The notes under the pieces: generated by a model | Databases searched by the model: none | What the model was told of the DNA's origin: nothing | The model's input: only the letters and a program-made list of their open reading frames with translations | In this document: piece after piece, positions 11,265 to 62,157 of the stretch | Layout of the letters: each line of letters begins with the position of its first letter | How positions within the stretch are numbered: position 1 is the stretch's first letter | Assembly: GCF_035084215.1 (NCBI RefSeq) | Contig: NC_090363.1 | Coordinates: forward strand, 2,418,001-2,482,000 | Direction of reading: 5' to 3' | DNA: 64,000 nt | Source: Heptranchias perlo | Taxonomy: Eukaryota | Program-made: the position numbers and the translations under genes

Positions 11265-12425
11265 TGCAGTTCAAGGCATTTGATAAAGTCCCACATAATA
11301 GAGTTGTTAGCAAAATTAAAGCCTATGGGATTAAAGGGACAGTGGCAGTGTGGATACAACATTGGCTAAGGGACAGAAAGCAGAGAGTAGTGGTGAACGG
11401 TTGTTTTTTAGACTGGAGGGAAGTACACAGTGGTGTTCCCCAGGGGTCTGTATTAGGACCACTGCTCTTTTTGATATATTTAATGGCCTGGACTTGGGTA
11501 TACAGGGTATAATTTCAAAGTTTGCAGATGACACGAAACTCAGAAATTTAGTTAACAATGAGGAGGATAGTAACAGACTTCAGGAGGACAGAGACAGACT
11601 GATGAATGGGCAGACACATGGCAGATGGAATTTAACGCAGAGAAGTGCGAAGTGATACATTTTGGTGGAAAATGAGGAGAGGCAATATAAACTAAATGGT
11701 ACAATTTTAAAGAGGGTGCAGGGACAGAGAGACCTGGGGATGTGTGTACACAAATCTTTGAAGATGGCAGAACAAGTCAATAAGGCTGTTAAAAAAGCGT
11801 ATGCGATCCTGGGCTTTATTAATAGAGGCATGGAGTACAAAAGCAAGGAAGTTATGCTAAACCTTTATAAATCACTGGTTAGGCCCCAGCTGGAGTATTG
11901 TGTCCAATTCTGGGCACCACACTTTAGGAAGGATGTCAAGGCCTTAGAGCGAGTGCAGAGGAGATTTACTAGAATGGTACCAGGGATGAGGGTCTTCAGT
12001 TATGTGGAGAGACTGGAGAAGCTGGGATTGTTCTCCTTAGAGCAGAGAAGGTTAAGGGGGGATTTGATCGAGGTGTTCAAAATCATGAAGGGTTTTGATA
12101 GAGTAAATAAGGAGAAACTGTTTCCAGTGGCAGAAGGGTCGGTAACCAAAGGACACAGATTTAAGGTAATTGGCAAAAGAGCCAGAGGGGAGATGAGGAA
12201 AGAGCGAGTTGTGATGATCTGGAATGCGCTGCCCGAAAGGGCGGTGGAAGCAGATTCAATAATAACTTTCAAAAGAATTGGATAAATACTTGAAGGGAAA
12301 AGATCACAGGGTTATGGGGAAAGAGCAGGGGAGTGGGACTAATTGGACAGCTCTTTCAAAGAGCCAGCACAAGCACGATGGGCCGAATGGCCTCCTCCCG
12401 TGCTGTACCTTCTATGATACTATGA
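11265..12425 (+). mobile_element. CR1 LINE 3' fragment
   Basis: [33 protein letters not shown], frameshifted; TTCTATGA tail. Confidence 0.9.
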
Positions 12426-12437
12426 ACTTTCCTCCAG

Positions 12438-13124
12438 TAGCAGCCTCTCTGACTCTGAACGCAGACATGGCGCATCGTGAGCTGCTCTTGGCGGAGGTCC
12501 TGACCCGCGTGAGGCGTGCGGACACGTTGCAGAAGCTTCCGGGCAACCAGGAGAGCTTTCATTAATGTGTCAATACCTTGGGATCTTTAGGAATCACAAC
12601 AGGGAAGCATTGCTGGGAGGTGGAGCGAGGCTTGAGTGGGACGCGAAGTGTGGCCGGGAAAAGAGAACACGAATCTGACTCAATTCTGGACTGACAACCG
12701 GAAGTGAATATCTCTCTGGTCCCTTGTCTTCTACCCGACAAAACTAAACCTCCGGCTTGCCCCTGGACTATGAGGGCGAACAGGTGTCATTTTACAATGC
12801 GGATAACGGGTGATTTTAACCCCCAAGAAGAGGTGGGTTGGGGGCGGGTGGGAGTTGAAAAGAGTTGTTTTTTGGGTCGCGCCCGCAACCCGGCTTTATT
12901 TCTGGATTCAACCTGGGCGCGTAAAATTCCAGACTTCCCACTGGGAACGCAAAGTCCCCCCAAAAAAACAACTGTTTTCAACTCCCACCCGCCCCCGACC
13001 CACCCTTTCTTGGGGGTCAAAATCACCCCCAACATGTCCCATCTCCACTCTCTCACTGCGAAACCCTTTCTTCAGTCCCGGCGTGAGAGGTGGCGAAAGA
13101 AACCCAGAGCCGCTGACAAGCTAA
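12438..13124 (+). pseudogene. Orphan PRY-SPRY (TRIM exon 6) pseudo-exon
   Basis: ccAG|..AASLTLNADMAHRELLLAEVLTRV...PGNQESFH*; remnants of GKHCWEVE, LDYEGEQVSFYNADN, MSHLH and PFFSPG...NPEPLT. Carries a stop, deletions, frameshifts and a MITE insertion. Confidence 0.85.
12808..13030. mobile_element. MITE (PIF/Harbinger-type) inserted in the PRY-SPRY pseudo-exon
   Basis: Long TIRs GGGTGATTTTAACCCCCAAGAA...TTCTTGGGGGTCAAAATCACCC. 3-bp TSD AAC; removing the element restores ...GAT AAC ATG TCC CAT. Confidence 0.85.
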
Positions 13125-18595: not shown

Positions 18596-19335
18596 AAGGA
18601 CTTACTGTGACTTTTCCCGCTGTTTGAGCGTTTAACGTTTTGATGAATACACTCAGGCCGGGGATGGGGGGGGGGGGGGGGGTGAGGGGGGATGGGGAGG
18701 GGGAAGTGGGGGGCTCCTGATCTTCCACCGAATTTAAACCCAGCGCATACTGGATATCTTAGGCTCTGAAATTCCGCGGGGCTACTTTCGCTCTCTTGCG
18801 GCAACTTCAGCGGTAGATCTGCGGAGCCCCCAGAGAAACGACGTGAGCGGCCTTTTTGCACCGCCCCGAGCAGCAGCGGATGTCTGGCGGTAGCGCCGCG
18901 GAATCAGAGCCGTGATTTTACGCCAATTTACCATATCCCCCCCCCCCCCCCCGACACACACACACACACTTCAGTGAACGGAAAATCGCAGGCTGGCCAG
19001 CAACAAGAACACAAAAGGGAACTGCATTGAACTCAATCGGCCACATCGCTCCGCCCCGGGGATACTGGTATTGGAGAGAGGACCTTCCGTTCCATATATG
19101 GACAGAACGCAAGTCGCTGGTTGCTTGAAGAATATAACAAGTGTTTTATTCCACCCACGCGCCAGGGAAAATCGCGCGATAAGGTGCAATTCTTGCCCTG
19201 ACAATCACACTGAAAGCCACAAGCCTTCGGCGCTCCACCAACAGTTATTACTTCTGATACCGCCACGGGGAACTGCGGAAGCAGAGCGACGCTGGTAGTC
19301 GATGCAGCTTGAAGCAGCAATCGCCGATGCCGATG

Positions 19336-19755
19336 ATGGCTTCGGGACATTCCACCCTGAGTGTGGAAGATGAACTAAACTGCCCCCTTTGCTTCCAGCT
19401 CTTCGCCGATCCGGTTATACTGGACTGCGGCCACGATTTCTGCCGGGAGTGCATCACCCAGTACTGGGAAAAGGAGAATAACGCGCTTTGTCCGGAATGC
19501 GGCCAGGTCTTTGGGGACAGAAGCCTGAAATCCAACCGGGCGTTGGGAAAGCTGGTTAAAAAGAGCAGAAATCTCACTCTGAACCTCAAAGTGAGGGGCA
19601 ACAAACCTTACTGCATCGAACACGAGGAAGAACTGAAGCTGTTTTGTGAAACGGACAAGAAACTGATCTGTGTGATGTGTCTGGACAGGAGAGACGGACG
19701 GAGCCATAAAGCCCATAATTTCATGCTGATTAACGAAGCTGTCGAGATCTACAAG
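19336..19755 (+). CDS. TRIM-B exon 1 (RING + B-box2)
   Basis: [19 protein letters not shown]...EAVEIYK|GTAAGA. Confidence 0.92.
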
Positions 19756-22700
19756 GTAAGAGGGCGACCGAGGCTTCACGGTGCGCTTGCTTTTAATTTG
19801 CGTCATTGAAACATAATCCCCGCTATGAATTTCGATTTTAATTTCAGGAAAAAATGAAGCTGAGCCTACATTCTCTGAAGCAGAAGAAATCCTATTACCA
19901 AGAGTTTGAACTCAAACAACAGGAAAAAATCACAGAAATCAAGGTAATTTCTCACTTGTCGAACCGTTTGACTCCGGTTGGTTTTTTGGTCCGTTCCTGT
20001 CAACTGGGTTAAATTGAGCACTTTTTCTTTTGTAGGATCAATCGAACAAACTGCAGGGCCACATCACAGTCGAATTTTCTAAAATGCGCGGCGTTCTGGA
20101 CGAAAAACAGCAGATTTTATTCACGGACCTTACGGCGCAAGAAAGTGATGTTTTGAGCAGGATGGAGATGAATCTTCGAAAAATTCAAGACAATTTAAAT
20201 CGCACTCAGCAAATGTTATCAAACGTGCAGAGACGATTAGACCATCACGACGTGTACACCTTGTTGAAGGTGAGCGGATTGTTTGGCAGGTTTCCTGGAC
20301 AATCATTAACAATCCAAAGGCTGCCAATGCGCACAGCGGACCCGCTAATTCCGCGGGGCTCCTTCCCATCTCCCGCCATGACTCCGGGAGACCGGGTCAA
20401 CCTCGGCGGAATTCCCAGGCCGTTTCTTTTTGTAAACGCGATCACATTCGTTCGTTAAAAAATAAACAGAAACGCAAATGCAAAGCCACATCCTCACTCA
20501 GCGTGTGAAGAGGGAATCAGGTTAATTTTTGTTTTTTGTTATTTTCATGGGGTTTGTGGACGGGACCTGACCCTCAGTACTGATTAACCCGCCCTCCCTT
20601 TTCAGGTATTGATAACTCAGTTGTGCATTTCCAACTATTTTGTTTTCCGATTTCCAGTATTGGGAGTTTTCTTTGAAAAAAAAGAGAAACTGCTTATATT
20701 AGAAATCATAATTAAAAATGTTGCGGGTGAAATTGGACACGGACGGGGACACTCAACAAGCGATTCGCATTGAGGGACTGTTATACCGATACCAAGAAAC
20801 ACAGAAAGTTAGCATGCAGGTACAGCAAGTAATTAGGAAGGCAAATGGTATGTTGGCCTTTATTGGAAGGGGGTTGGAGTACAAGAATAAGGAGGTCTTG
20901 CTACAATCGTACAGGGCTTTGGTGAGACCCCACCTGGAGTATTGTGTACAGTTTTGGTCTCCTTACCTAAGGAAGGATATACTTGCCTTAGAAGCGGTGC
21001 AACTAAAGTTCAGATTGCTTCCTGGGATGAAAGGGTTGTCCTATGAGGAGTGGTTGAGTAGAATGGGCCTGTACTTTCTAGAGTTTAGAAGAATGAGAGA
21101 TGATCTCATTAAAACATTTAAGATTCTGAGGGGGCTTGACAGGGTAGATGCTAAGAGGCTGTTTCCCCCGACTGGAGAGTCTAGAACTAGGGGGCATAGT
21201 CTCAGGCTTTTTAAAAAATATTCATTCATGAGATGTGGGCATCGCTGGCGAGGCTGGCATTTATTGCCCATCCCTCATTGCCCTTGAGAAGGTGGTGGTG
21301 AGCCGCCTTCTTGAACCGCTGCAGTCTGTGTGGTGAAGGTTCTCCCACAGTGCAGTTAGGAAGGGAGTTCCAGGATTTTGACCCAGCGACGATGAAGGAA
21401 CGGTGATATATTTCCAAGTCGGGGTGGTGTGTGACTTGGAGGGGAACGTGCAGGTGGTGTTGCTCCCATGAGCCTGCTGCTCTTGTCCTTCTAGGTGGTA
21501 GAGATCAGTATAAGGGGTCGGACTGAGATGAGGAGAAATTTCTTCACTCAGAGGGCTGTGAATCTTTGGAATTCTCTACCCCAGAGGGCTGTGGATGCTC
21601 AGACATTGAATATATTCAAGACTGAGATCGATAGTATTTTGGACATTAACGGAATCAAGGGATATGGGGATCGGGCAGGTTGAAGATCAGCCATGATCTG
21701 ATTGAATGGTGGAGCAGGCTCGAGGGGCCGAATGGCCTACTCCTGCTCCTATTTCTTATGTTCTGATATGACGCGCTCAACATCCAGTTCTATTGAATAT
21801 TGGACGTGTCGTATAATGGTCAGTAACCGTGATTCCGCTTGTTGTGTCCCCGCCCACTTCTAATTTCACCCCCCCCGCCCCCCGTTGAACGTACACAACA
21901 GGTTAATCAAGAATCTGAAACAGAGCTACAAGTTGGTCGGTTCTACCCAAGTGTCTACAGTGGAAAAACACACCTGTCTTTTCCACTTACAGATGCTGAC
22001 GTCTCTGTTGCAAAATTGCGAGAATTGCTTGCGTCCATTCCTTTTTAGTTCGGTTGCTTTATTCGTTATTGTGCTTGTGGCAAGTCTAACCTCATTACAC
22101 CGTCTGCGGGAGATCTGAATGCCTAGACACTGTTACAAATCACGTGGGAATATGCTGGCGTTTAGCTTTTAAATGTGTAGGTTGGGCAAATAATTATTGT
22201 TCCCCTTTAATGTAGCATAGCATCAAGTTAGTTACATTTTTGTGTGCTTTTGATTGAGTGTGCAAGGTCAAGTGAGTGTGAGAATGATTGCCACTCTTTT
22301 TGAGTGGGACTGAATTTACATCATTGTAACAAATAAGTCTTTACATACAGATCTTTCGAAGTGGCTGGGCTCTTCCAATGGCGTTGGGGAGTATTTGCTA
22401 TTTTTCTATTGACTCCTGTGCTCTATTGTGCTGTACGGTTGTGTGTTCTTCAGTCTGGTGTAACTTTACCTTCTTCTGTGAGCTCATGATGCCTTTTTTT
22501 TGTTCTTTAGGACGCTCCGCTTGACGACAAGAGGTATGACACGTTCTTCACAGAAACTCTGCATAATCATAAAGTAACAAATTGAAGTCCTTGTTTTCAT
22601 CTTATAATTGTTAATTGTTTCGTATTTGCATCATTAGTGAAGATGATTATCAACCTACGATAGCTGAAGGCAATCTGCCGATCGGAATATTCCAAGGACC

Positions 22701-25700
22701 TATCCAGTACAAAGTTTGGAAGCAAGTAATAGACGTTATAAATCCCGGTAAGGAATTCTTTTTACACCCATAAAATCCTCAGTAAGTATGACTATCAGCG
22801 CAAGAAGAGATACTAAACTTTCAACACGGATCGTGCCCTGAAATTCCGCAGGGCTACCACCAGCCTCCCGCCCTAACTTCTGTGGGAAATTAGTGGAACC
22901 CTCAGAGAAACGGTGCAACTGTAATTTTGGCTGTGTCTCTTGGATTTTGCCAGTCTAACGCTGAACCTACGGTGGGAGACACGTGGTAGCCCCGTGGAAG
23001 TTCAGGACCAGAATGCCCACATTTTTATTTTTAATTGGCTCACGTCAAAATGAAGGGTCAGGACCAATAGTGCAGGGCGTCGCTAAGATTGAAAAGAGAA
23101 AGAGAGATGAGGATGTTATGGCTAGATGGCCATCAACCGAGCGTTTTTAAAGCCCTCACTGTGGAGGGAAAGGGAGATGAGTACAAGATACAGGATCAGA
23201 GAATTTCTCCACAAATTTGGCATGACTGGGTTGCAGCTTTAAAGCAAATTCCTTTGATACACTTTGCCATAAATGGAATAACTACAATGTCTTGTAGAAA
23301 TTGCTTCTTAAAAAGAACAATATTCTTGCCCTTAAAGCCCAAAGCAAATTCCGTAGTTCTGCGGAAACTTTTCTTTTTAACGAGGCAGTGAAGACAAGAA
23401 TGAAAATTGTTTTGTGGACAATTGCTTAACTCAGCGGTGTCTTTTAAAATTCGAACTCTTCTGTAATTGACAGCGTGAACTTAGCACAAACCATACAACG
23501 CATTACAAAATAGGTTAATTACAATAAATTGTCCTTTAAAATCACTTAGAGGAAAGCCTCCTGCTAACAATATCATAGTGGGGAGACTTCCCAATGTGTG
23601 TTATTTTTAACACATTATTGTATACTGACAGAACAGGTACCGTTACGATGACCTGTAATTATTTCTGTAGCAAGGGTAAGTGTAAATGAAGCCAGTTCAA
23701 TCGGCTCATCTGTGAGAATAAATGTATCTTCTTCCTAGATTGGGCAAACAAGCAACTTTTTGATTGATCTCTACCGCTCTCCTATTCTTTTCAAACTTGA
23801 CAAAGTTCTGAGCCCCTGAGCTTGACCCTTGACCCGGATTCACCGTACAAAAATAAAGTGTAGGATAACTTTTTTTAGGTTTGACAATTGTAAACAATTT
23901 TACAACACCAAGTTATAGTCCAACAAATTTATTTTAAATTCCACAAGCTTTCGGAGGCTCCTCAGTTGGTGTGAAATAGTTAATGCACTGATAGTCACTG
24001 TCATTACGCCAGGCCACCTTCATGAAGATCGGATAATAACAATGCCAGTGCTTGCTTGGTGAAAGTTCCAATTTCAGCCCTGTGCACCGGGAATTTCCCG
24101 CGAGGGTTCCTCCAAACTGTCGCGGTAACTTCGACCAAATATCTGTGGGAACTCCGGAGAAATGGCTGATGTGATTTCTCAGGCAGGCGCACCGATCGTC
24201 CACTGAGGTTCCCGTTCAAACTTGTGACGGGGCCTCAATTTTAACTACCCCTCCCCTGCCTGGTGGAAACCAGGCGTGTGGGGGCGGTTAAACGGACTGG
24301 GGGTGGGGGGGCTTTCCCACCCACCCCTTTCGACTCAGATCTGACCGCAAGGACACCTGCCCCAAGCCGGCGGGATCCTCTTCAACTATGCAGATCAGGT
24401 CCTAATTTCGATCTCAGGCCAGATCTGCGATTTTAACCAGAGGCTTGAGCGAGGCAGCAGAAAGCCTGCCGGGATCCAAGTCGAGGGCCAGCAGAGGCAC
24501 AGCAAGGTAAGCTTTTATTAATTTTATTGTGTTTCTTTGTAGCCCAGAAGGAGCAAGACTGCTCCTCCGGACCCCGCAAGGAACCTCGGGCCACCCCCTT
24601 GTCACGGGCTTCCCCCCACCCCCCTCCCCTCCCTCGATGGAGATTCCCTCCCCAAGACTCACCTGACTGCCAGGGGACCATATCCTCAGCGGCGGCCTCC
24701 TGCCACCCGAATTCCCGCTCCCGCCCGCAGCCCATGCATTGATTCCCGCCCGGCTCAGACAGGAATCAGTGTCTGAATATGGAAACGAGGCACAGGCCCT
24801 AAAACCTCATTGGGTCCCCCTGATCCCGCCCGAGTTAAAGTTTTTTGCGTGGTGAGCTGCTTGAAGCTATTTGTTCTGCCGTATTATCATTGCATCATAG
24901 TACGTTACGGCACAGAAGGAGGCCATTCAGCCCATCATGCCCGTGCCAGCTTTTTGAAAGAGTTTTCCAATTAGTCCCACTCCCTCTGCTCTTTCCCCTG
25001 TAATTTTTTTTCACTTCAAGTATTTATCCAATTCCCTTTTGAAAATTATTGCGAAAGTTATTCCCAATATTGAATTGATCATTGGGGGAAAAATAGTTAA
25101 AAAAAGACAACACTGAGCATCAATTTCTTTGTCCTAATTTGAAATTGTGGCCTTGACATTCCAAAGGGGTTGTCCACGTTCCAATGTTAGCTTTGACGGA
25201 AGACCCCCAGGGAATGGAAAAAACACTTTATAAAAAGGCCTTTAGCCTGTCTTCCACCGGTGTTCTGAGAGATCCGGGTCATTGTATGTTTCTATTTTAT
25301 TGGCAGACGCAAAGAACGAACGGTGAGAGCAAATCCATGAAATTACTTATTACCAGCAGGGTTAAGCAGTAATATTTATTCTGCCACTCTTTCACTCCCT
25401 CGGGGTCGTTTTAACTTTGGGTGGCGGTGTTAAACGGGCGATATCGAATCAAACGGCCGTTACGCCCCCAACTAATGGAAGGGAAAATCGGGCGTGGGGT
25501 AAAATGAGCGGGTAATCCGATATCTCATGTTTTAGACAATCGCCCGGATTTAAAATCACTGCCGTGTGGGACAGATCCTTCTGGGACATTTCTTCAAGTC
25601 TCAAGCATTTAAAAAGAAAGTCTGACCTCAGGCTCCTGCTACTTGTCACAGCTCGGTAATTAATCGCAATTCGAGGGTAGATTCTAGGATGAGCGCAGGA

Positions 25701-28700
25701 CTCATAGAATCATAGAAGTTACAACATGGAAGCAGGCCCTTCGGCCCAACATGTCCATGCCGCCCAGTTTGCCTGCCTGTTTTCACTCATTTTAATTCCC
25801 TGACCAAACAATTTGCTTTCAATCTGCTTCTGTGCCCGTTTCTCATCTCAATCATCACCGCAGAGGAGATGAAACCAATTCATCTGATCACTCACCACGC
25901 ACTGAATAAATGCTCACCTTGCGTCGCCTACCTAACGCCAGGATTTCCTCACATTTCGGGGTGATTTTAAGTTAACTTGCCAGGCGGAAAACCCACAGGA
26001 TCGGGTGGAACACCGGTTTTACACCCCGCCCAATATTGCTGTCCATGGAGTGTAAAACGGGCTGGGTGTAAAACCGCCGTTGCACCCGATGGTCAGTTTT
26101 CCGACGGGCGAGTTACGTTAAAATTGCCCTCACGTGTACCTGTACCGCTGGTTTCCCTTCATCCCAATGTTTTTTTTATTTCCCTCAGGCCCTGTGTTTG
26201 AACTTTTCTTTACCAACTCAGCGGCTGTTGTTACTATCACTTTGTCTTTTTTTCCATTTATCTTACGCCAATGGAAGATAATTTCGTGCGGGACGTATAA
26301 CGAACGGCCCCGTGCAATATAGCTCGTTCTCGCATTACCGGTCAAGGCGGATTCCGTCTAGGCGAGAGCCGGAAGGGAACCAATCGGAGTTGCCGCTCCT
26401 GCTCACTACCCATTGCATGTCGGTGGACCGTGTTGGGTTTGGTTGTTTGGTTCCAAACGGTTGAAAAGCTCGTTGTTAGTCACGCATGAAAAGTGATCTC
26501 TTCTGTGAGGCAGCGGGTGTTATCAGCCATTCCGTGGCTTCAGCAAAGAAAACTGGTGAAAATGGCAAACATCGATTGGAAACTATCCTAAGCAGAAAAA
26601 AATGGTACCAACATGTATTTAAAAAGTTGTGAGTCTTTGATATCTGAAATACGGAAAATTCTGCAACTGCAGGGCGGTATATGAAAAGAGAAATTATAGG
26701 TTAGCGTTTTGGATACAGACTCTTTTCCATAACTGGAATGTGGGAGATAAGCCTTTCATAGGACTGAACAAAATGCACGTTGGAGGGGACAATAGGTAAA
26801 AGTCAACAGCCTGCTTTGCCAATTGCTGTCACAAAGAGTCAGTTAAATGGGTGGCGTAACTGTTATCAGGTTATTGGGGACCTAAATTGGTCTTTGCCCG
26901 TAGCAGAAAATGGACGATATCGAATCGAGCGCCCAGTTTACTTTTCCATTGAATTTCAGTCACTGTCGGCCATTTTTGCGCCAAGGCCCACGGCCAGTTT
27001 CACCCCCTGGCGTCTGAATCAGACAGCAAGGGGCACTGGAAAGGTGAACAGGGATTGAAAACAGCTCCCAAAATAGAAGATAATGAAATGTGCGTGGGAT
27101 AAACACGCAGGAAAATTGGAGAGACAGGTAAGGTCCGAATTTGCTAGGATACATTTCGAATCGGTGAACTGAGCAGTGCCCAGGAATCCTATTCATGGAG
27201 TTTGTATTGAGCAGGGGTGACACCATGTTGAAGGAAAAGTCAGAATGGGTTTCACGGGAGGGTCAACATGGCGCCTGTCGTCATCAGTGGTAATTTTCAG
27301 TTTGAGCACTGGCGTAAAACTGGCAGTTTCCGATACGCCCGTTATTCACCCTACCTGATATTCCTGTCCATTGAGATAGATTTTTTTAATCTGCCACTGG
27401 GTCGTAAATCTGATGTTACCAATCCGCCGCCTGTTATTGAAACTGTCTGATTTTCATTTCATTTGAAATCAATGGAAAGGCAAATCCAACGGTTTCTATA
27501 AGGGGCCAGTGATCTGCAACACCAGTTTTACAACCACGCAGGAAATTTTCAATCTACCCCATTGACTTTAATTGAAAGGAAAAAGCTTGGCTGTATAATG
27601 GATGCTCGATCCACCATCCACCGCTGGCCCAAAGTGGAATTACTCCAACAAATCTCCATTTCTTGCCCACATTCTGGAGGAAGTCGCACCACGTCCAATA
27701 AATTAGACTGGACGGAGAGAAGGCAAATTGCTGTTGGCCACTTCAGGATGGTGCGGGAGAGCTGATTGGGCAGGGGCTACTTCTGCTTCCAGTTCCAATA
27801 AAACTGCCAGAACTGATCAGAGGAAAAGGCTGTTATGGAATAGTGAAGGAGGCCATAGGGAGTAAAATTCAACTTCAGAGAGGGCACAAAATGGGCGATA
27901 GCAGTTCGACTCCCTGCCCAAAGTCAATGGGACAGGGCGTATAACGGGCGGCCGAACCGCTCCCGCCTATTTTGCCCCCTCACCGAAGTTGCGTTTCACC
28001 CTCCAGTGGTCGATCACAGAGAGGGAAGGCGGTGGAAGAGGTGCTTGATAGGGGCATTGTTCATCTTTCTCCAATTTTCCGAGAAGCCTGTTCACAGGCT
28101 ATTAAACCCGGAAATCCCCTTTACCGTGGTAACTAGTGATTCGTGACGTTTACCTGTTGTTCTCCCCTCCTTAGTTAAATTTGATCAGTCTTAGAGGGTT
28201 TCACTTATCTTCAAGCTTCCCGTCTCTAACCAAAACTTTAACCTATCTTTTTTCTTTTCAGACGCCGAAGGACCCGATGGGCTGAATTCTCCTCCCGGTG
28301 GCAGGTTAGCGGCTGGGTGGTACTAGCACCCGGCCACGTAACTCCACCGCTAACCTGCTGAACTTTGATCCCGAGGCCCCCCCCCATTAACCAACAGCAT
28401 GGTTAGCAGTGGTAATTTCCATCCTCGCTGAGCTACTGCTGCAGAGGCGGAGGGAAATTGATTGTTGTTGCAGCTTTTAACAGGCTGGCAGCTAGTTGAC
28501 TGGGCAGATCACTCCCTGGCCTACAGGAAGTGCAACTGCAAGTATTTATGGAGGGGACGGTAGCTTTGGGGTGGGGGAGAGTGTCTGCCTGATTCTCGAA
28601 AACATCTATTCGAGCGTTGCCGCATGGGACCTGGAGCAGGCAGTCTTATAAGAGGATGGTTCCGGCTGCGCGGAGGGCAGTTGCAGAAACATTAATGCAA

Positions 28701-31700
28701 GTAATTTTAACCACACCTTCCCTGAGATGATGGGATCGACCGCCGGTTTCACACCCCGCGCATTTTTATGCTCCGTTGACTTCAATGGAGAGCAAACTCT
28801 GGCGGGGTGTAAAACTGGCATTCGAGCCGGTCCCGTCAGTTTTTCACCAGAAAGGTCAGGTTAAACTTACCCCTTCTTCACTGCAACCGCGATCACCCCA
28901 AGAAGTGCCACAGAGTGCAGGAAGAGGTTTAACGGCCTCAATAGGCCTGTGTTGCCAATCCCTGACAGAGGCTTCCCTCAACTGCCTTCTTCTGCTACTC
29001 TGTCCTAACCTGGATGTCAGAACAACTGACTTATGCAAAGGGAAATCTCTGTAGATACTCAAGCACCATCTGAACTGATACAGCCTTGCCCCAAGGGTTA
29101 CTAATAGTCACCGTGTGACTTAAAGGGACAATGGGCATGCATCTTTCATCATCACGCGATCCATGCACTCACATGGAAGAAACCAAGTCCCAATGCTTCT
29201 CACGTTCGTTCATCATTGTTTTCTCTCCCCACAAAGGAAACGGTGGCGCACAGCCACCAACAGAGAAATACAACCGGGGAGAAGCATCAGTGCTGAAAAC
29301 CATGAGTGCACATGAACAGGGAGTTCTGCAAATGATAGGCAGACAGACAGGAGAGGCTGTGGGAGATTGTGAGATTGGAGGCGATGTGGCAGCAGAAGGT
29401 TGGTAAAGGCAAGGCAAGGCTCATCAAGAGTAGTGTCAGCCTCCTAAGTTTTCTCAAAGTTTTGGAGTGTCTAACACTCAACTGTTATTTCTTCAAGATG
29501 AAATGCTATTGTGTACACATCTAAACAAGCTCTTCTGTGTTTCACATCACAGGGGGTGCCTTGGAAGGAGAGGCCAGCCATTTGAATGACCACCCAGGCA
29601 GTGCCAGAGCCACAGCTGCTATTACTTCCAGATCTAGAATTCCTGCCACTCCATCACCAACTTCACTAAGGCATCTTACCCGTGCAAGCACCAGCACAGG
29701 GACCCCATTTGGGAGGGAGTAGTTAGTGAGTCAAAAGGCCTTTCATCAGTGAAACACTGAACGTCGATGAGAATGTGAACCTTGAAGTGGAAGAGAGGGA
29801 GATAGCCTTTCCTCCACAGAGGGCAAAGGAAATATAGACCCAGATGGCAAGAGTCGAGTCTTGGAGAGAGCTATGATTCTATGAGGAGTTGAGCAGTGGA
29901 GACAGTTTCCAGGCATGTGGTTGAGATGATGGACAAGTGGGAGGAGTCCCCCACATACATTGCAGAACGATTTTCACGACATGCAGAGTACCCTGTGGCA
30001 AGTGACAGCCCAGGAGATTTCTGTCGCAACAAGGTGTCTAAATGAGATAGTAAGGAGATGTATGGCATCCGGAACGGCAGCTACCCCTGCTTCACTAGAT
30101 GCCTTGGGGGTCAGCCTGAACATCACGCTTGCACAAAGCTTCTGAGTCCTCGATAGGACTATTCAGCCTGAGATGACACCGACCAGTAGCCTGTGCCCTG
30201 CACCAGTGGGTTATAGGGAGTGGTCACAGACATCGCTGTTTCTCCAAAGAGCGACAATTAACCTTCTCCCTTAAGGTTCCCTCTAATGCCTGCACCGATA
30301 GGCGTCTCAGACGCGGGTTCAGCACCCGTGGTACTGCCGGAGAAAGGCCTGCTGGCGGCTGGTTCCTCTGAGGCAGGTCCTTCGCTGGGACAAGAGTCAC
30401 CCAATCTTTTAAGGTTCGGAGGAAACCATCCTAACTCCCCACTGCTTAATCTCACCTCACTCAGGGAGTACCTCATAAAAGTCGTAGACTAGGGTCTAGA
30501 GCAGGTAACTGAACCGGCACAAGGCGTGAACCCAGAGTTCAGAAATATTTGTAGGTGGGGTGATTTTACACCTTTAGGTGAATGTTACTTTTCAAAGTAG
30601 ACATGTCTCGATCACATGGAGTTCTCAGCGCTTTTCCGTATGAGCTTGTAAGTTTTAGTCATTGTATAATGGCAGGAGACTAAAATATTGTCTTATGAAG
30701 GGGAAAGACAGAAATCGTTGACAGTGAGGGTTTTTTTAGTGGGTTTGGAGGGAGAACAGGAAGGTGTGAAGTGACATTAGTTAGTGTGTCAACTTTTATT
30801 TATTGTAAACCCTGGGCTCGAAGCCCAGATCTTTCTCCGGGTGCTGACGATTCTGTTTCACGTCTTTCCCCTTCCTGTATAGCCTTTTCATGTTGCGGAA
30901 ATGGATGTCCTCCCTTCCTCCCATCACCATCACCCCCTCATCTTCCCGAAGCAGCAAGCCTACCTTCATTGTGATGTTATGTAGTATCCATCAATCTACA
31001 ATGATTCTGGAGACCTCCTCTGGACTGTCTCAGGGCTTTACCGGGAGCCTCAAAGGATACTTCAGAATTCATATAGCCCCTGTCAACTAAAACGATAGGT
31101 AGGCAAAGTGCAAATAACGCTCCGGTGTAGCAACCAAATTGCCTCTTCAATTCGGTATCCACCTATAGAGTGACGGTAATCATTTGACTCGGGCTTGAAG
31201 AAAAAGTTGAGGAAACTGGAGGGCAGAGGTTAGCGATTCATACTTGACTGCGGGACGGCATGGCATTGCGTGTTAAAGAGTTACCTGATTTCTGCGGGAT
31301 TATTCTAGGTGGGGGGTTTATACTGGATTAGTTTAAGCGGTAGCAACTACCGCTCCATTGTACTGACTGATTAGCCCCAAAACGGCCTGAAACGGGCGGT
31401 AACTGGAAGGAAAATTCAGCCCACCGTCTAATCGCGGCATTTCTGCTTTGATTTCAAAGGATTGTGTTGCGCCCACCCTAAGCTGCAGCAGGTGACCAGA
31501 AAGCGGTTCCAACTTCTTTCTGTTTGGGGAGCCGGGTGGAAAATCCCTTCTCGCGATTCCTGGGCAGTAACTCAAAACTTCGGCGGGTGCAGAAAACTGC
31601 CGGGATCGGATCGGCCGCCTGTTACTCCTCCCGTTCGACTTTCCTTTCCATCCGCAGTCAATGGAATGGCGCAGCCGATCGGAAACTGGCAGTTAACCGC

Positions 31701-34700
31701 CCCCTCGCCGATACTGAAAGTGACCCCCCCCCCCCCGATCTCTCAGTCCTTTTGTTAGTTATCTGTACCTGCAATTGGGAAATCGGTTCCAATTTTAACC
31801 TGTTGGAGGGTTCCGAGACTAAATATGTTTTCCTGTGTGATGTTATCGCCCCAGGCTGGATACCCGAATCTACGCCGCTGGCTCATTTTGGGAGGGTGGT
31901 AGGGGCGCTGCCATTAGCTTTGATCTACCCATCACTAGCCTTTCCTGCAGTCGCTTGCTATCCAGTGATCCCCGCTGGAAGGGGAGTTTATGTGAGGAGG
32001 GGGGTGTTGCCACCGTGACCGATAGCCCGTCAGCACTTGTTTTATGGGCTCGTAGATGAGGAAAAGCAACTTAGACGGAGCACCAAGTAGCCGAGGGACT
32101 GCCCCTCAACACGACTAACTTCTTCCGAAGGCAGAGACAAGAACGGTGTAAAAATATCTTTCCACATCTCTCACACTTGACGTCCAGTCGCCTGATGACT
32201 GTCATCCTGCGTTCCTCTGTCAACCTACCGATATCAGTATTTGTAATAGTGCTAGAAACCAATGGTATCATCCTTAAAGTATCTGTCAGTGCTCTATACA
32301 GTAAGATTGATCGTCCTTCTGTAGAATATTGTGAGCTGTGCGTTTATTTATCTGCCTTAAGTAATAAACGGACAGCCCAAGGCTCCGGGTACAATGGGAT
32401 CTTTCCACTAGAGTGAAGCACCAGTGCAAATGTCGCAGTGTGGGAGTCATTTTCCAACTCGTGCATCCGCTGGGAAGCCTTGCGCACATAGGAAAGTCCG
32501 CTAAGATTGTAACTCATCTGCAGCGCCTTAATTTCCGATGTGCATTCCTTTATCCCCATAACTCGTCAGTCGGGTCCACCATCCAATGGCCCCAGGGCAA
32601 TAAAGTGAGAGATGTCACGGTATTAGCAGGCAGTCTAACCCCGTTCACATATAATGCAAGCCCGCTAACGGACCGCGTTTCAAATGTGCCCGGGCTATCC
32701 TGGGAATTTTATAACCTTTAGAATAAAACTTTAGGAGAGAGCGAGCGCTCCTGACCACGCCATAAAAATAGGAACATAGGAACAGGAGTAGGCCATTCAG
32801 CCCCTCGTGCCTGCTCCGCCATTTGATAAGATCATGGCTGATCTGTGATCTAACTCCATATACCTGCCTTTGGCCCATATCCCTTAATACCTTTGGTTGC
32901 CAAAAAGCTATCTATCTCAGATTTAAATTTAGCAATTGAGCTTGTATCAATTGCCGTTTGCGGAAGAGAGTTCCAAACTTCTACCACCCTTTGTGTGTAG
33001 AAATGTTTTCTAATCTCGCTCCTGAAAGGTCTGGCTCTAATTTTTAGACTGTGCCCCCTACTCCTAGAATCCCCAAACAGCGGAAATAGTTTCTCTCTAT
33101 CCACCCTATCCGTTCCCCTTAATATCTTATAAACTTCGATCAGATCACCCCTTAACCTTCGAAACTCTAGAGAATACAACCCCAATTTGTGTAATCTCTC
33201 CTCGTAACTTAACCCTTGAAGTCCGGGTATCATTCTAGTAAACCTACGCTGCACTCCCTCCAAGGCCAATATGTCCTTCCGAAGGTGCGGTGCCCAGAAC
33301 TACTCACAGTACTCCAGGTGCGGTCTAACCAGGGTTTTGTATAGCTGCAGCATAACTTCTGCCCCCTTGTACTCCAGTCCTCTAGATATAAAGGCCAGCA
33401 TTCCATTAGCCTTATTGATTATTTTCTGCACCTGTTCATGGCACTTCAATGATCTATGTACCTGAACCCCTAAGTCCCTTTGGACATCCGCTGTTTTTAA
33501 CTTTTTACCATTTAGAAAGTACCCTGTTCTATCCTTTTTTGATCCAAAGTGGATGACCTCGCATTTGTCTACATTGAATGGCAGATAGTGAGTTCCGAGC
33601 ATGCGCCAGGTAGTGAATTCCGAGCATGCGTTCAAAACCTCGCAGCTCCTTTTGGGAAGCGCACTTGACGGTGTAACTCTGATCCACCGGTTTCCATCGC
33701 ACTCTACAGACACCTGTGCACTCGCTTACCTCAGTTCCGATTTGTGACCAAGGTTGGTTGCGTTTTAAGCACTTTTATTAAAATGAAACGTGAATTATAC
33801 TTTGCAACAAAATGATGATTTTTATGTTCTTGCTCCGTTATTCTATAGATTATAAATATGCAGGCTGCACCGAACCAGCCAGTAAACCTGCTTCCCGAAC
33901 TGAAGCGAGCGAGGAGATGCCCAGGAAACGTTCCTTTAAATATAGCACCGAAGAAAATAAAAGAAAATGTAATCAATTATATATCGACCTAATATAATGT
34001 AATGGAATAGATAGCAAGGATCTGTAGCTTTTCGAACTTATCTTGGAGGTTTTTCACTCCAATACCTCGGAGTTCTAGAGCGCCGAGAGCCGCCATCAAA
34101 TTATAAAGTTAATTCGCCACTTGCAACAAAAACAACTGTGCTTAGATTAATCAAAGTGCAGTCATTGGAAGGAGCCCTTTCTGATTTTGCTTTTGTTTCA
34201 TTCCTTTTTTGTCAGTTCCAGCCTATCTGACTCTGAATCCTAACACGGCGCATCCCCGACTCCTCCTTTCCGAGGACCTGACCGTGGTGACTTACGGAGA
34301 CGTGAAGCAAGACGTCGCGGACAAACCGGAGAGGTTTGATACTTGCGTCTGTGTCCTGGGCGCCGAGGCGTTCACATCTGGGAAGCACTACTGGGAGGTG
34401 CAGGTGGGGAACAAGACTGAGTGGGATGTGGGCGTGGTGAAAGAGTCCATCAGCAGGAAAGGACACACTACAGCAACACCGGAATCCGGATACTGGATTG
34501 TGTGGCTGAGAAACGGAAACGAATACAAGGCGACAACCGTGCCCCGTACCCGCCTGAACGTAATTGTGAAACCCAAAGCCATCGGGGTGTACCTGGACTA
34601 TGAGGGCGGACAGGTGTCGTTTTACAATGTGGACAACATGTCCCACCTCTACACCTTCATTGACACTTTCACCGAGAGACTCTTTCCTTACTTCAGTCCT

Positions 34701-34769
34701 GGTATCAATGACGACGGAGAAAACGCGGAACCACTCAAAGTCCTCCCAGTCAGATGTCACGAAGAATAA
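19336..34769 (+). CDS. TRIM-B: complete class IV TRIM (RING-B-box2-CC-PRY/SPRY), 478 aa, 6 exons
   Basis: Exons 19336-19755, 19848-19943, 20036-20269, 22511-22533, 22638-22747, 34216-34769. GT-AG introns and an open frame throughout. Alternative in-frame ATGs at 19327 and 19333. Confidence 0.9.
19848..19943 (+). CDS. TRIM-B exon 2 (96 nt)
   Basis: ttcAG|GAAAAAATG...ATCAAG|GTAATT; [14 protein letters not shown]... Confidence 0.9.
20036..20269 (+). CDS. TRIM-B exon 3 (234 nt)
   Basis: [26 protein letters not shown]...YTLLK|GTGAGC. Confidence 0.9.
20790..21765 (+). mobile_element. CR1 3' fragment in TRIM-B intron 3, interrupted by an antisense Zenon-like LINE tail (~21210-21503)
   Basis: RT C-terminus [18 protein letters not shown] is broken at TRGHSLR and resumes at [11 protein letters not shown]. 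Confidence 0.8.
22511..22533 (+). CDS. TRIM-B exon 4 (23 nt)
   Basis: tttAG|GACGCTCCGCTTGACGACAAGAG|GTATGA. Confidence 0.85.
22638..22747 (+). CDS. TRIM-B exon 5 (110 nt)
   Basis: [36 protein letters not shown]|GTAAGG; acceptor inferred at ttAG 22636-22637. Confidence 0.8.
25957..26130. mobile_element. Hairpin MITE (representative of many in the window)
   Basis: GGGGTGATTTTAAGTTAAC...GTTACGTTAAAATTGCCC; related to the MITE at ~28700-28873. Confidence 0.65.
28279..31422. mobile_element. Decayed PIF/Harbinger transposon in TRIM-B intron 5
   Basis: TIRs GGGCTGAATTCTCCT...AGGAAAATTCAGCCC. Plus-strand Myb/SANT remnant ([17 protein letters not shown], ~28890-28945) interrupted by a MITE (~28700-28873). 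Minus-strand transposase C-terminal remnant ([19 protein letters not shown], ~30965-31030). Confidence 0.65.
32770..33580 (-). mobile_element. CR1 3' fragment
   Basis: [12 protein letters not shown]...RPHLEY...[16 protein letters not shown]; near-identical to the split copy at 2923-8570. Confidence 0.9.
34216..34769 (+). CDS. TRIM-B exon 6 (PRY-SPRY/B30.2)
   Basis: [21 protein letters not shown]...ERFD...GKHYWEVQV...[16 protein letters not shown]...LFPYFSP; stop TAA 34767-34769. Confidence 0.93.
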
Positions 34770-53750: not shown

Positions 53751-54295
53751 TTAAAGGTTTTTGACTTGGAGGATTATCAGAGGTTCTGCGTTTTTCCTGT
53801 CTTCGTTAGAACCAGGACTGAAGTAAGGGTAGACTTTGCCAGCGAAAGAGTCAGTGAAAGTAAAGAGAGTGGTCATGTTGCCCGCATTGTAGAAGGACAC
53901 CTGTCCGCCTTCATAGTCCAGGTAAACTCCGATCTTCCTGGCCTTCAAATTGTTGGTAACGCGGGTGGGAGTGGCTGTGGACGCCCAGTACTCATTCCCG
54001 TTTTTCAGCCCCAATACCCAGTATCCTGCTTCCGTCGCCGAATTTGAGGCCCGTTTTCGCACGGAATCTTTGGCCACACCCAGATCCCACGCCGTCTTGT
54101 TTCCCACGTTCACCTCCCAGTAGTGTCTCCCTGATGTGAACCCCACCGATCCCAGGACACTAAGATCGCGATCGGACCCATCCGCGGTATCCGAGAGCTG
54201 CCGCTGTTTGTCTCCGAGTCTCACGGTGGTCCGGTCCTCGGACAGGACGAGCTGGGGATGCGCTGTGCTCGGGTCCAGAGTCAGAGAGGCTGGAG
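53751..54295 (-). CDS. TRIM-C exon 6 (PRY-SPRY/B30.2)
   Basis: APASLTLDPSTAHPQLVLSEDRTTVRLG...GRHYWEVNV...[16 protein letters not shown]...VYPYFSP; stop TAA. Confidence 0.93.
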
Positions 54296-57200: not shown

Positions 57201-60200
57201 TAAATGGTACAATTTTAAAGGGAGTGCAGGAACAGAGAGACCTGGGGATGTATGTACACAAATCTTTGAAGGTGGCAGGATATGTTGAGAATGCTGTTTA
57301 AGAAAAGTACGAGATCCTGGGCTTTATTAATAGAGGCATAGAGTACAAAAGCAAGGAAGTTATGCTAAACCTTTATAAAACACTGGTTTGGCCCCAGCTG
57401 GAGTATTGTCCAATTCTGGGCACCGCACTTTAGGAAGGATGTCAAGGCCTTAGAGAGGGTGCAGAGGAGATTTACTAGAATGGTATCAGGGATGAGGGAC
57501 TTCAGTTATGTGGATAGACTGGAGAAGCTGGGATTGTTCTCCTTAGAACAGAGAATGTTAAGAGGAGATTTAATAGAGGTGTTCAAAATCATGAACGATT
57601 TTGATAGAGTAAATAAGGAGAAACTGTTTCCAGTGGCAGAAGGGTCGGTAACCAGAGGACACAGATTTGAGGTAATTGGCAAAAGAACCAGAGGGGAGAT
57701 GAGGGGAATATTGTTTATGCAGTGAGTTGTTATGATCTGGAATGCGCTGCCTGAAAGGGCGGTGGAAGCAGATTCAATAATAACTTTCAAAAGGGAATTG
57801 GATAAATACTTGAAGGGGAAAATTTGCAGGACTATGGGGAAAGGGCAGGGGAATCGGATTAATTGGATAGCTCTTTCAAAGAGCCGGCATAGGCACGACG
57901 GGCCGAATGGCCTCCTTCTGTGCTGTAAGATTCCTTGATTCTATGGTGTTACCGTTTTAATGAGATTGTAGCAGTGATATTAATTCCACATCAGCCAGCT
58001 AGCTATGTCCTAATTTGTAGAAATTCGTGCAACTTATATTTTATTATAGGTCCCTTTGTCTTTCTTGTCTCCTACAATCTATGGGCTATTATAATTCAAG
58101 CTTGGCCACTACATCTCGATTTAACTCCTCTTGTGTCATATGCTTTTCTACTTACCGAGAGTCCTTGCACGATGGTCCTTTACTTGCCTGTATTAAATTA
58201 AAAATACAGGTTTGAAAATGTCATGTTTAGCCTCTATTGTCTCGTGTGCTTGAACGTATTGTGTCTCACTGTGGATTTTATGGGTAAAAAAGATACCATC
58301 TTACCGGGGTTGATAACGTCCATTATATCTCGCCACACTCTATATTGGATAGGTCCCTTGAATGACCCCAGAGGGAGCTTGCCTTCTGCTACTGTCGTCT
58401 GATAATTGCTGTCACTAATAATGTAAATTAGGAACATTAGAAACTGAAAATTGGCACTAAAATATGGAGTTGCGTTAATTTATGGACAGATTCAATTGAG
58501 ATCGATTCATACCTCTTTCCCTTATCTGGATCCTCCTGAAAGTGAACAAAACAGAGATTGGAGCTCACAGTAACCACATGGAGGAGTGGCAGCAGGCGGC
58601 AGGGGATGTAACCGTGCGACACAATGGAGCAAGGGACCCGGTAGAAAATGTCGAAAACTCACCTTCCTCGTTTGAGAAACGCCCAGAAAGATAGAAAGGC
58701 ACGTATGAAAAAAAATCACCGTTTTGTACAAGGATTCGACTAGGGGCAGAAATAATGGCCAGGAGTCGCTGCTTGGTGGCCAATGCTTAACAGGCCGGTA
58801 TGGCATTCCTATCTGCTAATTCAATCGAGGCATTAACTTGTGTAAAATAACACCTGCACTAAAGTAGCAGAGATAAATGATGCATCGATGGATTAACCGT
58901 TCATCACTGATATGAGCAACAGTAATTTCAAGGTTAGGGACATCATTATTATCTGACCCGCACACCATACATCCCATTCATATAGACACGTAAATGTGAC
59001 TCGTCTATTTCCCCATCAGTTAATGAGGAACAATATTTTATGATAAACAGGAACAATTAAAGCATAATCACCAGGACAACCATTTGAAGCGGCGGGAGTT
59101 ACAGGGTTATGGGATGGGGACGGGGCAGTGGAGTCCACGTTCTATTGGTCTAGCAAAGAACCAGCACAGACCCGATTGGCTGACGACCTCTTCCTTTTGT
59201 AGCAAACCCTCTGTGGTTCGATAACCCCAACTGAGCCGCGCATCTGGAATTTTAGGGCCGCGCATCTGGAATTTTAGGGCCGCGCATCTGGAATTTAAGC
59301 GAGGGTTCTTCTGATCTATTACCTTAATTTTCGCCGGAGGATCGGCGGAAAACCGGGCGAAATAGGTGACGGGCCATTTATCCCGTTTTTCGGGGTTTCA
59401 GCCGTAGTAACCCGACAAAAATGGGAAATCCCTGCGGAAATTTTACCCAAGAGTGGTTTCCCACCTCCGCCCGGACCACCGTCCCAAATTCCTCACTCCA
59501 CAGAGAGAGAAACGGACACCCAGCCGTTGCGGAACGTCAGGAAAGGGAGGCGGGGTAGGTGGGTGAGGATTGCGGTTGATGGGACTGCAGTTTTGGACGA
59601 GTCTCATCTTACGGTAGGCGGAGGGCAGGAGGCGGACAGGGAGACCCCTTGACAAAATCGAGACTGGAGGTGACAGAGGTCTAGGTAAGGGTTTCGGCCT
59701 GATGGAAGTGAAGTTGGGGGCCGAGCCCAGCGAAACTGAGGGTGGAAATAAGGGGGTAGAGTTCCCGTGAGGGTTCTCCCGACCTCCCGCTGAAACTTTG
59801 GTGGAAACCACAGAGAAACGGCGCAAAGGGCTAAATTCCACCGAAGTTACGGCGGATGACCCCCAGTGAGAACCCCAGCGCAAATTCTGCCCCCAGCTAT
59901 CGTGGGTTTGAGTAGATTGCTGGGGTTATAGGTCAGCCCCCCACCCCCCCCCCCCCCCCCGGTTTGACCGTGAGCAGCAAGCAGAGCATCCGTTGGGGAT
60001 TCCGTCAGGGGACCGCGAGTATGAAACTTGGAGGTAGCAACAGATGGAAAGGCCTTAGAGAGAAAAAGGAAGATCAGAGATGGTTTGGGGCAGTTAGAGA
60101 GGGCGGGCAGGTTCAGGGCGGGCTGCGGGTGAGCAAAGGGAGCGATTAACAGCAAGACTGGTGACCTCTTAACCTGCTTTTGGTAAGTGCTGATTTAGAG

Positions 60201-62157
60201 AGAGATGTTGGCCAGGACATCGGCAAAGCTCGCAGCTCTTTATCGAATATTTCGACCAGATCATTTCCCATGCACCTGAACCGGGATAAGAGGCAGAAGG
60301 AGCCTCGGTCCAATGTCTCATCCGAATATACCCTGCTCTCTTTCACACTCTGACTAAGCTGTTACATATTTTCACATGCTGTGCTTTCAATGAACCAGAG
60401 AAACCGCATAAAACGCATTAACAAAATAAAAAGGATTGGAAATATTTCACTTTGCTTCCTGACAAAGCCTCCCAAACTTCCCTCAAATCAGCTCTGTTAT
60501 ATCGCCCGTCTCTACCCCTGCCTCAGCTCCCCTGCTGCTCAGCCCGTCATTCGTGCCTGTGTCTCCTCTAGATTTGACTGATCCTGGCCGGCCTCCCATC
60601 TTCCACCTTCCATAAACTCGCGTTCATCCACAACCCTGCTGCCCCGTATCCTAACTCGCACCAAGTCCCGTTCACCCATCACCCCCTGTGCTCGGTGACC
60701 AACATTGGCTCCCAGTCCGGCGGCCCCTCCATTTTAAAATTATCATCTTTGTTTTCAAATCCTTCCATGGCTTCACCCCCTCCCTATCTCTGTGACCTCC
60801 TCCAGCCCTACAACCCTCCGAGATCTCTGCGCTCCTCCAATTCTTGACTCTTGCGCATCCCCGATTTTAATCGCTCCACCATTGGCGGCCGTGCCTTCAG
60901 CTGCCTGGGCCCTAAGCTCTGGAATTCCCTCCCTAAACCTCTCCGCCTCTCTCTCTCCTCCTTTAAGACTCTCCTTAAAACCTACCTCTTTGACCGAGCA
61001 CCTGTCCTAATATCTCCTTATGTGGCTCAGTGTGAAATTTTGTTTGATAATCGCTGCTGTGAAGCGCCTTGGGGACGTTTTACTCCATCAAAGGCGCTAT
61101 ATAAATGCAGGTTGTTGTTGTTGTTATAATGTTCCTGTTGACAATTTCATGATCTGTAATTTTACTGAACTCACCAAAACAGCCACCTTACCTTCAGCAA
61201 GATGAAGGCATCCTGCTGGGTTAGCTGCAGCTGTACGCTCGACAACTTCTCCTCCGTCTCGTTTAAATTATCTTGAATCTCCCGAAGGTTTATCTCCATC
61301 TTCTTTAAAATATCCTCTTCTTGGTCACCGAGCTCCTTCGCTAAAGACCGCTCTTTTTCGTCCAGAACGCTGCGCAGTTTGGAAAATTCGGACGTGATAT
61401 GTTTTTGCAAACTGTTGGACTGTTCCTGGGAAGGGAAAATAAATTGGTGCTGTGTAATATTGAACTCGAGAAGTTAACAGAATAACAGCGGGTCCGAGCA
61501 GCCCCGCAGGGTGAGAATTTTACCTGGATTTCTGAGATGTTTTGCTGTTGCTTTAACAGAACGTTTTGAACAGACGTTTTCTTCTGATTCAGAGCCTGTA
61601 GGTTCACCCTCATTTTCTCCTGCAATTAAAATCGAAACTCAGAGTAGAGAAGGGTTCGCTAAACAGTCGCGACTGAAAACCAAAAACGACCATTGAAAAC
61701 CCCCCCTCTTATCCTGTCGCCCTCTTACCTTGTAGATCTCGACAGCTTCGTTAATCAGCATGAAGTTGTGGGTTTTATGGCTCCGTCCGTCTCTCCTGTC
61801 CAGACACATCACACAGATCAGTTTCTTGTCCGTTTCACAAAACAGCTTCAGTTCTTCCTGATGCTCGTCGCAAAACGGGTTGAAAACTTTGCTGGAATCC
61901 ACCGTGTTCTTCATGTTTAAGTTTCGGATTTTGTTAGACAGAACTCCCAAAGCTCGATTGGCCTTCAGGTTTTTGTCTCGGAATACCTCCCCGCACTCTG
62001 GGCAGAAAGCTTTTTTCTCTTTTTCCCAGCACTGCAGGATACACTGACGGCAGACATCATGGCCACAATCTAACATAACCGGATCGATAAAGATATCGAG
62101 ACAAATGGGGCAATTCAGTTCATCTCCCAAACTTAGGCTGGAGGACCCGGAAGCCAT
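53751..62157 (-). CDS. TRIM-C: complete class IV TRIM (RING-B-box2-CC-PRY/SPRY), 478 aa, 6 exons
   Basis: Exons 62157-61729, 61619-61524, 61425-61192, 58535-58513, 58414-58305, 54295-53751. GT-AG introns and an open frame throughout. Confidence 0.9.
56461..56655. repeat. Degenerate tandem repeat (TCTCTGTCCCCAGGG) fused to a CR1 tail (~56655-56785)
   Basis: About nine TGTCCCC(A/G)GG-like units. Confidence 0.7.
57030..57950 (+). mobile_element. CR1 3' fragment (TRIM-C intron 5)
   Basis: [23 protein letters not shown], with stops and frameshifts. Confidence 0.9.
58305..58414 (-). CDS. TRIM-C exon 5 (110 nt)
   Basis: DSNYQTTVAEGKLPLGSFKGPIQYRVWRDIMDVINP|GTAAGA. Confidence 0.8.
58513..58535 (-). 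CDS. TRIM-C exon 4 (23 nt)
   Basis: ttcAG|GAGGATCCAGATAAGGGAAAGAG|GTATGA. Confidence 0.85.
59234..59298. repeat. 22-bp tandem repeat x3 (GCCGCGCATCTGGAATTTTAGG)
   Basis: Directly visible. Confidence 0.85.
60490..61125 (+). mobile_element. L2 3' fragment (TRIM-C intron 3)
   Basis: IGGRAFSCLGPKLWNSLPKPLRLSLSSFKTLLKTYLF; (TTG)n tail. Confidence 0.8.
61192..61425 (-). CDS. TRIM-C exon 3 (234 nt)
   Basis: EQSNSLQKHITSEFSKLRSVLDEKE...FILLK|GTAAGG. Confidence 0.9.
61524..61619 (-). CDS. TRIM-C exon 2 (96 nt)
   Basis: EKMRVNLQALNQKK...ISEIQ|GTAAAA. Confidence 0.9.
61729..62157 (-). CDS. TRIM-C exon 1 (RING + B-box2)
   Basis: MASGSSSLSLGDELNCPIC...EAVEIYK|GTAAGA. Confidence 0.92.

Follow-up and report, generated by a model that had tools for sequence, protein, structure and literature searches.

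Mosaic concerted evolution has been described for several old gene pairs, including BMP8A/B, DDX19A/B and TUBG1/2, and the authors of that work speculate that binding regions stay matched (PMC2720389). Within TRIM clusters, conversion is known from the harbiTRIMs of squamates (bioRxiv 10.1101/2025.06.23.661133), from young primate TRIMs (PMC3228819) and from rodent Trim5 (PMC6677749), and the hetero-assembly of TRIM proteins has been described as relatively unexplored (PMC7179944). Here we describe two TRIM genes of the shark Heptranchias perlo, B and C, which share a short tract of nearly identical DNA over the B-box; our literature search, with most subscription journals outside it, found no study of this pair or of B-box conversion in sharks.

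Genes B and C and the tract they share

The window, a 64,000-nt stretch of contig NC_090363.1 (positions 2,418,001 to 2,482,000), contains gene B (+, 19336-34769) and gene C (-, 62157-53751), which are convergent and inverted and have six exons apiece with AG/GT ends, encoding 478 aa each. In gene B, exon 1 (19336..19755) encodes the RING, the linker and B-box2, exons 2 (19848..19943, 96 nt) and 3 (20036..20269, 234 nt) the coiled coil, and exon 6 (34216..34769) the PRY/SPRY, with two small exons between them (exon 4, 22511..22533, 23 nt; exon 5, 22638..22747, 110 nt). Gene C is built alike on the reverse strand, with RING, linker and B-box2 in exon 1 (61729..62157), followed by exons 2 (61524..61619), 3 (61192..61425), 4 (58513..58535) and 5 (58305..58414) and the PRY/SPRY in exon 6 (53751..54295). 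The spliced model of B is contained exactly in NCBI protein P0008 and that of C equals NCBI protein P0048, both labelled 'zinc-binding protein A33-like' from Heptranchias perlo. Exon 1 of both genes matches the RING families PF15227/PF00097 above the cut-off and the B-box family PF00643 (E 4e-9 and 6e-10 in the two genes), the latter segment also matching the solved B-box2 structures of TRIM41, XNF7, TRIM5 and TRIM39; PF13765 (PRY) and PF00622 (SPRY) are found in both genes and the reading frames are intact. The coiled coil is assigned by position and exon sizes, exon 3 of B being without a Pfam match. Judged by their sequences, B and C are intact TRIMs with RING, B-box2, coiled coil and PRY/SPRY, predicted ubiquitin ligases of class IV.

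Several other elements surround the pair. A further TRIM of an expanded group, gene A (872-2717, -), has a linker six residues shorter and 3' exons that run beyond the window start, and a broken PRY/SPRY remnant with a stop and a frame change lies upstream of gene B (12416-12807, +). A satellite at 37196-40763, in which a 20-nt unit is repeated in 178 copies with 93% matches, separates the 3' end of B from that of C, and LINE reverse-transcriptase/endonuclease frames, assigned by eye from their translations, are present at 4713-7799 (nearly complete), 11335-12285 and 43126-44829. Beyond the window, paralog E (L035; G000:C42:2484410-2484838, +) stands head to head with C, 4.2 kb beyond its start, and may share a promoter region with it; E has the same three-residue B-box insert and corresponds to NCBI protein P0087 (306 aa), in which PRY/SPRY is not among the listed domains. 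Linkage of the TRIM cluster to the MHC found no support, none of 42 MHC class I matches falling on contig C42.

Self-comparison of the window and pairwise alignment place the tract at 19625-19768 (+) in gene B and at 61716-61859 (-) in gene C, 42 kb apart, where B and the reverse complement of C are identical at 141 of 144 bases (98%); a preliminary description, made by eye, had put it at about 140 nt with about three differences. In B it takes in the last 131 nt of exon 1 and the first 13 nt of intron 1 (residues 98-140), and in C residues 101-143 and 13 nt of intron 1. The encoded segment of gene B comprises most of B-box2, without its two leading zinc ligands (C93 and H96), and continues into the first turns of the coiled coil. 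Mismatches are confined to 19711, 19716 and 19719, that is to a 9-nt island (19711..19719, +) flanked by exact runs of 86 and 49 nt; they amount to Ala126 in B versus Thr in C and two silent sites, and such clustering of three sites into 9 of 144 nt has a chance P of 0.008. In the 40-nt windows flanking the tract, 17-34 of 40 bases are identical, and coding DNA beyond it is about 70% identical (RING 0.73, linker 0.60, coiled coil 0.69, exons 4-5 0.68, PRY/SPRY 0.70), so the strong divergence of the adjacent regions noted at the outset is borne out. B and C share no further tract: elsewhere in their coding DNA the longest exact matches are 17 and 18 nt. The DNA upstream of the two genes (19100-19335 in B, 62158-62400 in C) still aligns at about 60-72% over some 230 nt, indicating that the promoter or 5' UTR belonged to the old duplication.

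The match includes synonymous sites and all 13 of the intron bases, as had been claimed. Between B and C, dS is 0.079 in the tract and 0.906 outside it, and codons for the same amino acid are identical in 38 of 40 cases inside the tract versus 143 of 236 outside (Fisher P 4e-6). The best 40-codon window was matched in 6 of 20,000 permutations, and in amino-acid-matched draws, for which 24 of 40 identical codons are expected, the value of 38 was attained in none of 200,000. Third-position GC over the 43 codons is not clearly raised (B 0.60 in the tract vs 0.53-0.68; C 0.65 vs 0.57-0.64). The cluster paralogs are not equally identical here: a genome search with the tract gave 33 matches, and besides B and C the other 31 reach at most 83%. 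Among the 465 pairs formed by 31 exon-1 copies, 71 have a RING identity of 0.62-0.78; their mean tract identity is 0.78, with B/C at 0.977 and the next-best pair at 0.85.

One part of the tract is less specific to the pair. Its 5' 48 nt are 83-98% identical to 29 other exon-1 copies as well, which leaves the 3' 81 coding nt and the intron to carry the signal specific to B and C; those 81 nt alone have 22 of 24 same-residue codons identical (P 0.002). The piece in question (19627-19674), purine-rich and located in the B-box exon, is similarly conserved among the 29 other TRIM exon-1 copies (G000:C42), in which RING DNA is about 60% identical. The 5' 48 nt of B and C are closer than expected to 26 distant paralogs of the expanded group (median P 0.005); those of E and L003 show no such closeness to the group. 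This likeness could reflect family-wide exchange or a DNA-level signal, and something else may be preserving part of the tract.

Age of the pair and its orthologs in sharks and rays

The ortholog set comprises at least 17 B and at least 16 C proteins among the matches listed, with both genes represented in 14 species; duplicates and isoforms (P0033, P0035, P0036, P0047, P0049, P0123, P0124, P0133 and P0136) were left out of the counts, as was P0057, which is neither B nor C. A tree of 29 proteins, built on 401 columns that exclude the tract, separates B from C in two clades, each containing sharks and rays, with bootstrap 100 and with an elephant-shark protein outside both. As read from this tree, the B/C duplication is older than the shark-ray split, which took place roughly 270-300 million years ago. 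Consecutive record numbers in at least seven species suggest that the two genes are adjacent there too.

In 14 of 14 species the tract proteins of B and C are identical at 40-43 of 42-43 residues (93-100%), whereas the RING agrees at 38-45 of 65 and the SPRY at 88-98 of about 175 (12 species with both SPRY domains). None of the 87 sites diagnostic for B or C falls within the tract, the nearest being residue 97, the codon where the DNA tract begins, and none of the 31 cases of a residue shared privately within one species falls in the tract, so the proteins offer no sign of repeated conversion. Counted by eye, the segment changed 7 times over 2.08 tree-length units in B and C (without Narcine), versus 7 times over 0.44 in the neighbouring family D. 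The shared 43-residue segment is ancestral and likely held by selection, and recent copying did not make it. Since the segment was already near-identical in B and C across sharks and rays, copying of the DNA would have altered little or nothing in the protein, and the proposal that conversion homogenised the B-box protein finds no support.

Changes in the segment were tallied by eye, since identical rows made a fixed-topology tree of the tract residues unusable. Narcine C (P0056) carries eight changes in the otherwise invariant segment and Narcine B is absent among the matches listed; loss of its partner could have released the constraint. Pristiophorus has the other gene's residue at 92 (in C) and 97 (in B), beside the tract, and these swaps were set aside as a weak sign of exchange, there being 58 of the kind over 87 sites, 8 of them in Pristiophorus.

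Ortholog DNA was available as contigs of three relatives (runs X6, X11 and X12) carrying orthologs of B, C and E; the X6 B contig differs from H. perlo B at 124 positions over 981 nt. Across 100 bases, the last 87 of coding sequence and the first 13 of the intron, 3 differences separate H. perlo B from H. perlo C, whereas its B orthologs differ from it at 9 positions in X6, 9 in X11 and 10 in X12; these small numbers were tallied by hand from totals, listed rows and loose ends. The paralogs, although the older pair, are thus closer than the B orthologs are, which points to an exchange after the lineages of the three relatives had split off. Position 19707 has T in H. perlo B and C, and C in the relatives' B contigs and in paralog E. 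The first 13 bases of intron 1 show no differences between the paralogs and 2-4 between orthologs; the intron-1 starts of B and E are also alike, which lends the 13-nt B/C match less weight. Recent ectopic conversion across 42 kb, as first suggested, therefore stands as conversion between inverted paralogs, and 'recent' holds in a relative sense, after the split from the three relatives and with three differences present. On a linear scale a dS of 0.079 is under one tenth of the age of the pair, from which we infer that the last exchange fell within some tens of millions of years.

Two of the relatives suggest that homogenisation also happened independently there. X11 (96% read) and X12 (read whole) each have a contig for exon 2 of C and a single tract contig of the B/C type; that of X12 (171 nt) includes 27 nt of its own species' intron and lies at 1.58x single-copy depth, and the X11 tract has a depth ratio of 1.45, compared with 1.38 expected for a merged tract. 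In X6 (about 55% read) the B contig is continuous through the tract, which would be unexpected if C shared 31-mers with it. Among the matches listed for X6, X11 and X12, no C-ortholog tract on a contig of its own was found, nor any contig joining the tract to the C intron; in run X7 the C exon-2 contig was not seen, which has no bearing either way. Repeated conversion in several lineages is likely. Within the tract, H. perlo B and E share the two silent T of the island in an identical 12-nt word (19714-19725); at both sites the base is C in gene C of H. perlo as well as in the B and E contigs of the relatives, and the shared T may be parallel change or micro-conversion with E. The island, which includes the one residue variable in several lineages (B has Ala126, C has Thr or Ser), resembles a divergence peak.

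Explanations for the shared tract

We consider it likely that, once this lineage had arisen, interlocus gene conversion transferred the tract from one of the two genes to the other, onto a segment that purifying selection likely already kept fixed. Such selection would hold the protein of B-box2 and the start of the coiled coil fixed in both genes, its conservation being observed and its cause proposed, and the constrained segment would be the sole stretch alike enough to pair and to serve as a repair template. Following the general model (PMC3924837), one inverted copy would template repair of the other. Copying inside the segment would be nearly silent and could drift to fixation; copying into the RING linker or the coiled coil would overwrite gene-specific residues and would probably be removed, or else be stopped by mismatches. 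Given the opposite orientation of the copies, crossing over within the tract would invert 42 kb and exchange the RING exons and promoters of B and C.

Selection might instead have favoured the conversion itself, with B and C joining one higher-order assembly through an identical B-box while their different SPRY domains read different ligands. In alignment to the solved TRIM5 B-box, all 10 TRIM5alpha B-box interface positions (as listed in PMC4936894) lie inside the tract, which starts at the residue aligned with Glu102; 3 of the 10 interface residues are kept (Glu102, Leu106 and Leu132) and 7 differ, Trp117, Glu120 and Arg121 being replaced by Val113, Leu116 and Asp117 in both genes. The slow change of the segment in B and C relative to family D fits such a role, as does the precedent of TRIM34, whose restriction requires TRIM5alpha (PMC7179944), and the same idea has been put forward for other gene pairs (PMC2720389). 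Zero change on the two stems has P 0.02 with the fast Narcine sequence but 0.13 without it (changes counted by eye), so that separate selection on B and on C can account for the identity. Co-assembly does not need near-identity of the whole protein, given that TRIM5alpha interacts with TRIM34 when the two are 56% identical overall (PMC7179944), and variants specific to one gene persist in the tract throughout entire clades: galeomorph C has Ser, B of both Scyliorhinus has Arg and B of three hemiscylliids has Thr. A complex prediction with two B-box segments and zinc, run without alignments and with controls not folded, gave a score of 0.02 (mark 0.34) and speaks neither for nor against association. 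On balance we regard selected homogenisation as unlikely. Equally doubtful is the fuller picture of an ancient paired TRIM sensor in sharks and rays, which would combine an invariant B-box surface of a non-TRIM5 type, mixed assembly and two SPRY specificities and would have been kept matched by conversion since before the two groups split.

It is improbable that no conversion took place and that the DNA itself is constrained in both genes, as by a splice enhancer, an RNA structure or a regulatory element at the end of exon 1. The location of the tract at the exon end and the purine-rich 5' 48 nt, conserved as they are across distant paralogs, would suit such an element. Against it, the B orthologs differ from H. 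perlo B at 5-8 positions in the last 87-92 nt, with about 18 silent sites, which shows that silent sites are free to change; the state shared by B and C at 19707 is absent in the relatives and in paralog E; and the 13 intron bases vary between orthologs and not between the paralogs.

Sequencing reads support two real copies. In run X3 (DNA) a 139-nt contig of depth 79.4 carries the tract by itself, lying between unique contigs at depths 46.9 and 43.1, and a 648-nt contig at depth 45.1 exits the tract end toward a second, different intron; the tract ratio of 1.76 (about 1.8x) compares with 1.64 expected if the island is merged (range 1.64-2), and the unique flanks give no sign of a chimera, a concern raised beforehand. 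Run X5, RNA by guess, contains a 3,080-nt contig that agrees with C at the three distinguishing sites and, at depth 2.1, a single junction of B exons 2 and 3. Each of the 33 ortholog proteins belongs to one gene on both sides of the tract, RING and coiled coil alike, and none is a RING-swapped chimera. An assembly artefact, with one tract pasted into the other gene or the flanks mis-phased, is therefore very improbable, even though X3 may be the assembled sample and hence no independent animal and the upstream join of gene C is absent among the X3 matches listed, given this depth pattern and the exit toward a different intron, the three sites that distinguish the copies, the 33 concordant proteins and the presence of the segment in both genes of 14 of 14 species.

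On the best reading of the tract, then, conversion was almost silent, probably recurrent, and superimposed on strong purifying selection.

Comparison with known systems

The tract is a case of mosaic concerted evolution of the TLR1/TLR6 kind, a process that is itself already known, and it offers a clean and very short instance of conversion between old paralogs. It also carries a caution: near-identical DNA over a domain does not prove that conversion built the shared protein, which here selection probably held first. As a natural TRIM pair whose B-boxes are identical and whose SPRY domains have diverged, and which all 14 shark and ray species retain, B and C would allow hetero-assembly to be tested directly by B-box swaps.

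As in BMP8A/B, DDX19A/B and TUBG1/2, part of an old pair is homogenised and the rest has diverged, BMP8A/B being likewise inverted (PMC2720389). The tracts of those pairs cover at least two exons and an intron and match no domain, whereas the 144-nt shark tract fits one zinc-binding domain, and the shark pair, unlike those, predates the shark-ray split. Immune paralogs with converted and unconverted regions are also found in TLR1/TLR6 and in avian TLR1A/B and TLR2A/B, where identical codons make up 96-99% inside and 56-66% outside the tracts (PMC3125219), compared with 95% and 61% in the shark TRIMs. The TLR tracts differ in their length of 0.6-1.2 kb and in within-species grouping documented in 16 species (PMC3125219), the full DNA of B and C coming from one species.

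Among TRIMs, the squamate, primate and rodent examples concern young, expanding copies that mainly exchange PRY/SPRY, and the primate study places one breakpoint between RING and B-box2 (PMC3228819); B and C are ancient, stably one-to-one, and alike in the B-box segment only. Their domain order is that of TRIM5alpha and TRIM34, and the tract covers the positions of B-box self-association (PMC4936894, PMC7179944). Unlike TRIM5alpha, the shark proteins are without the tryptophan core and the Glu/Arg ring and have a three-residue insert in the B-box.
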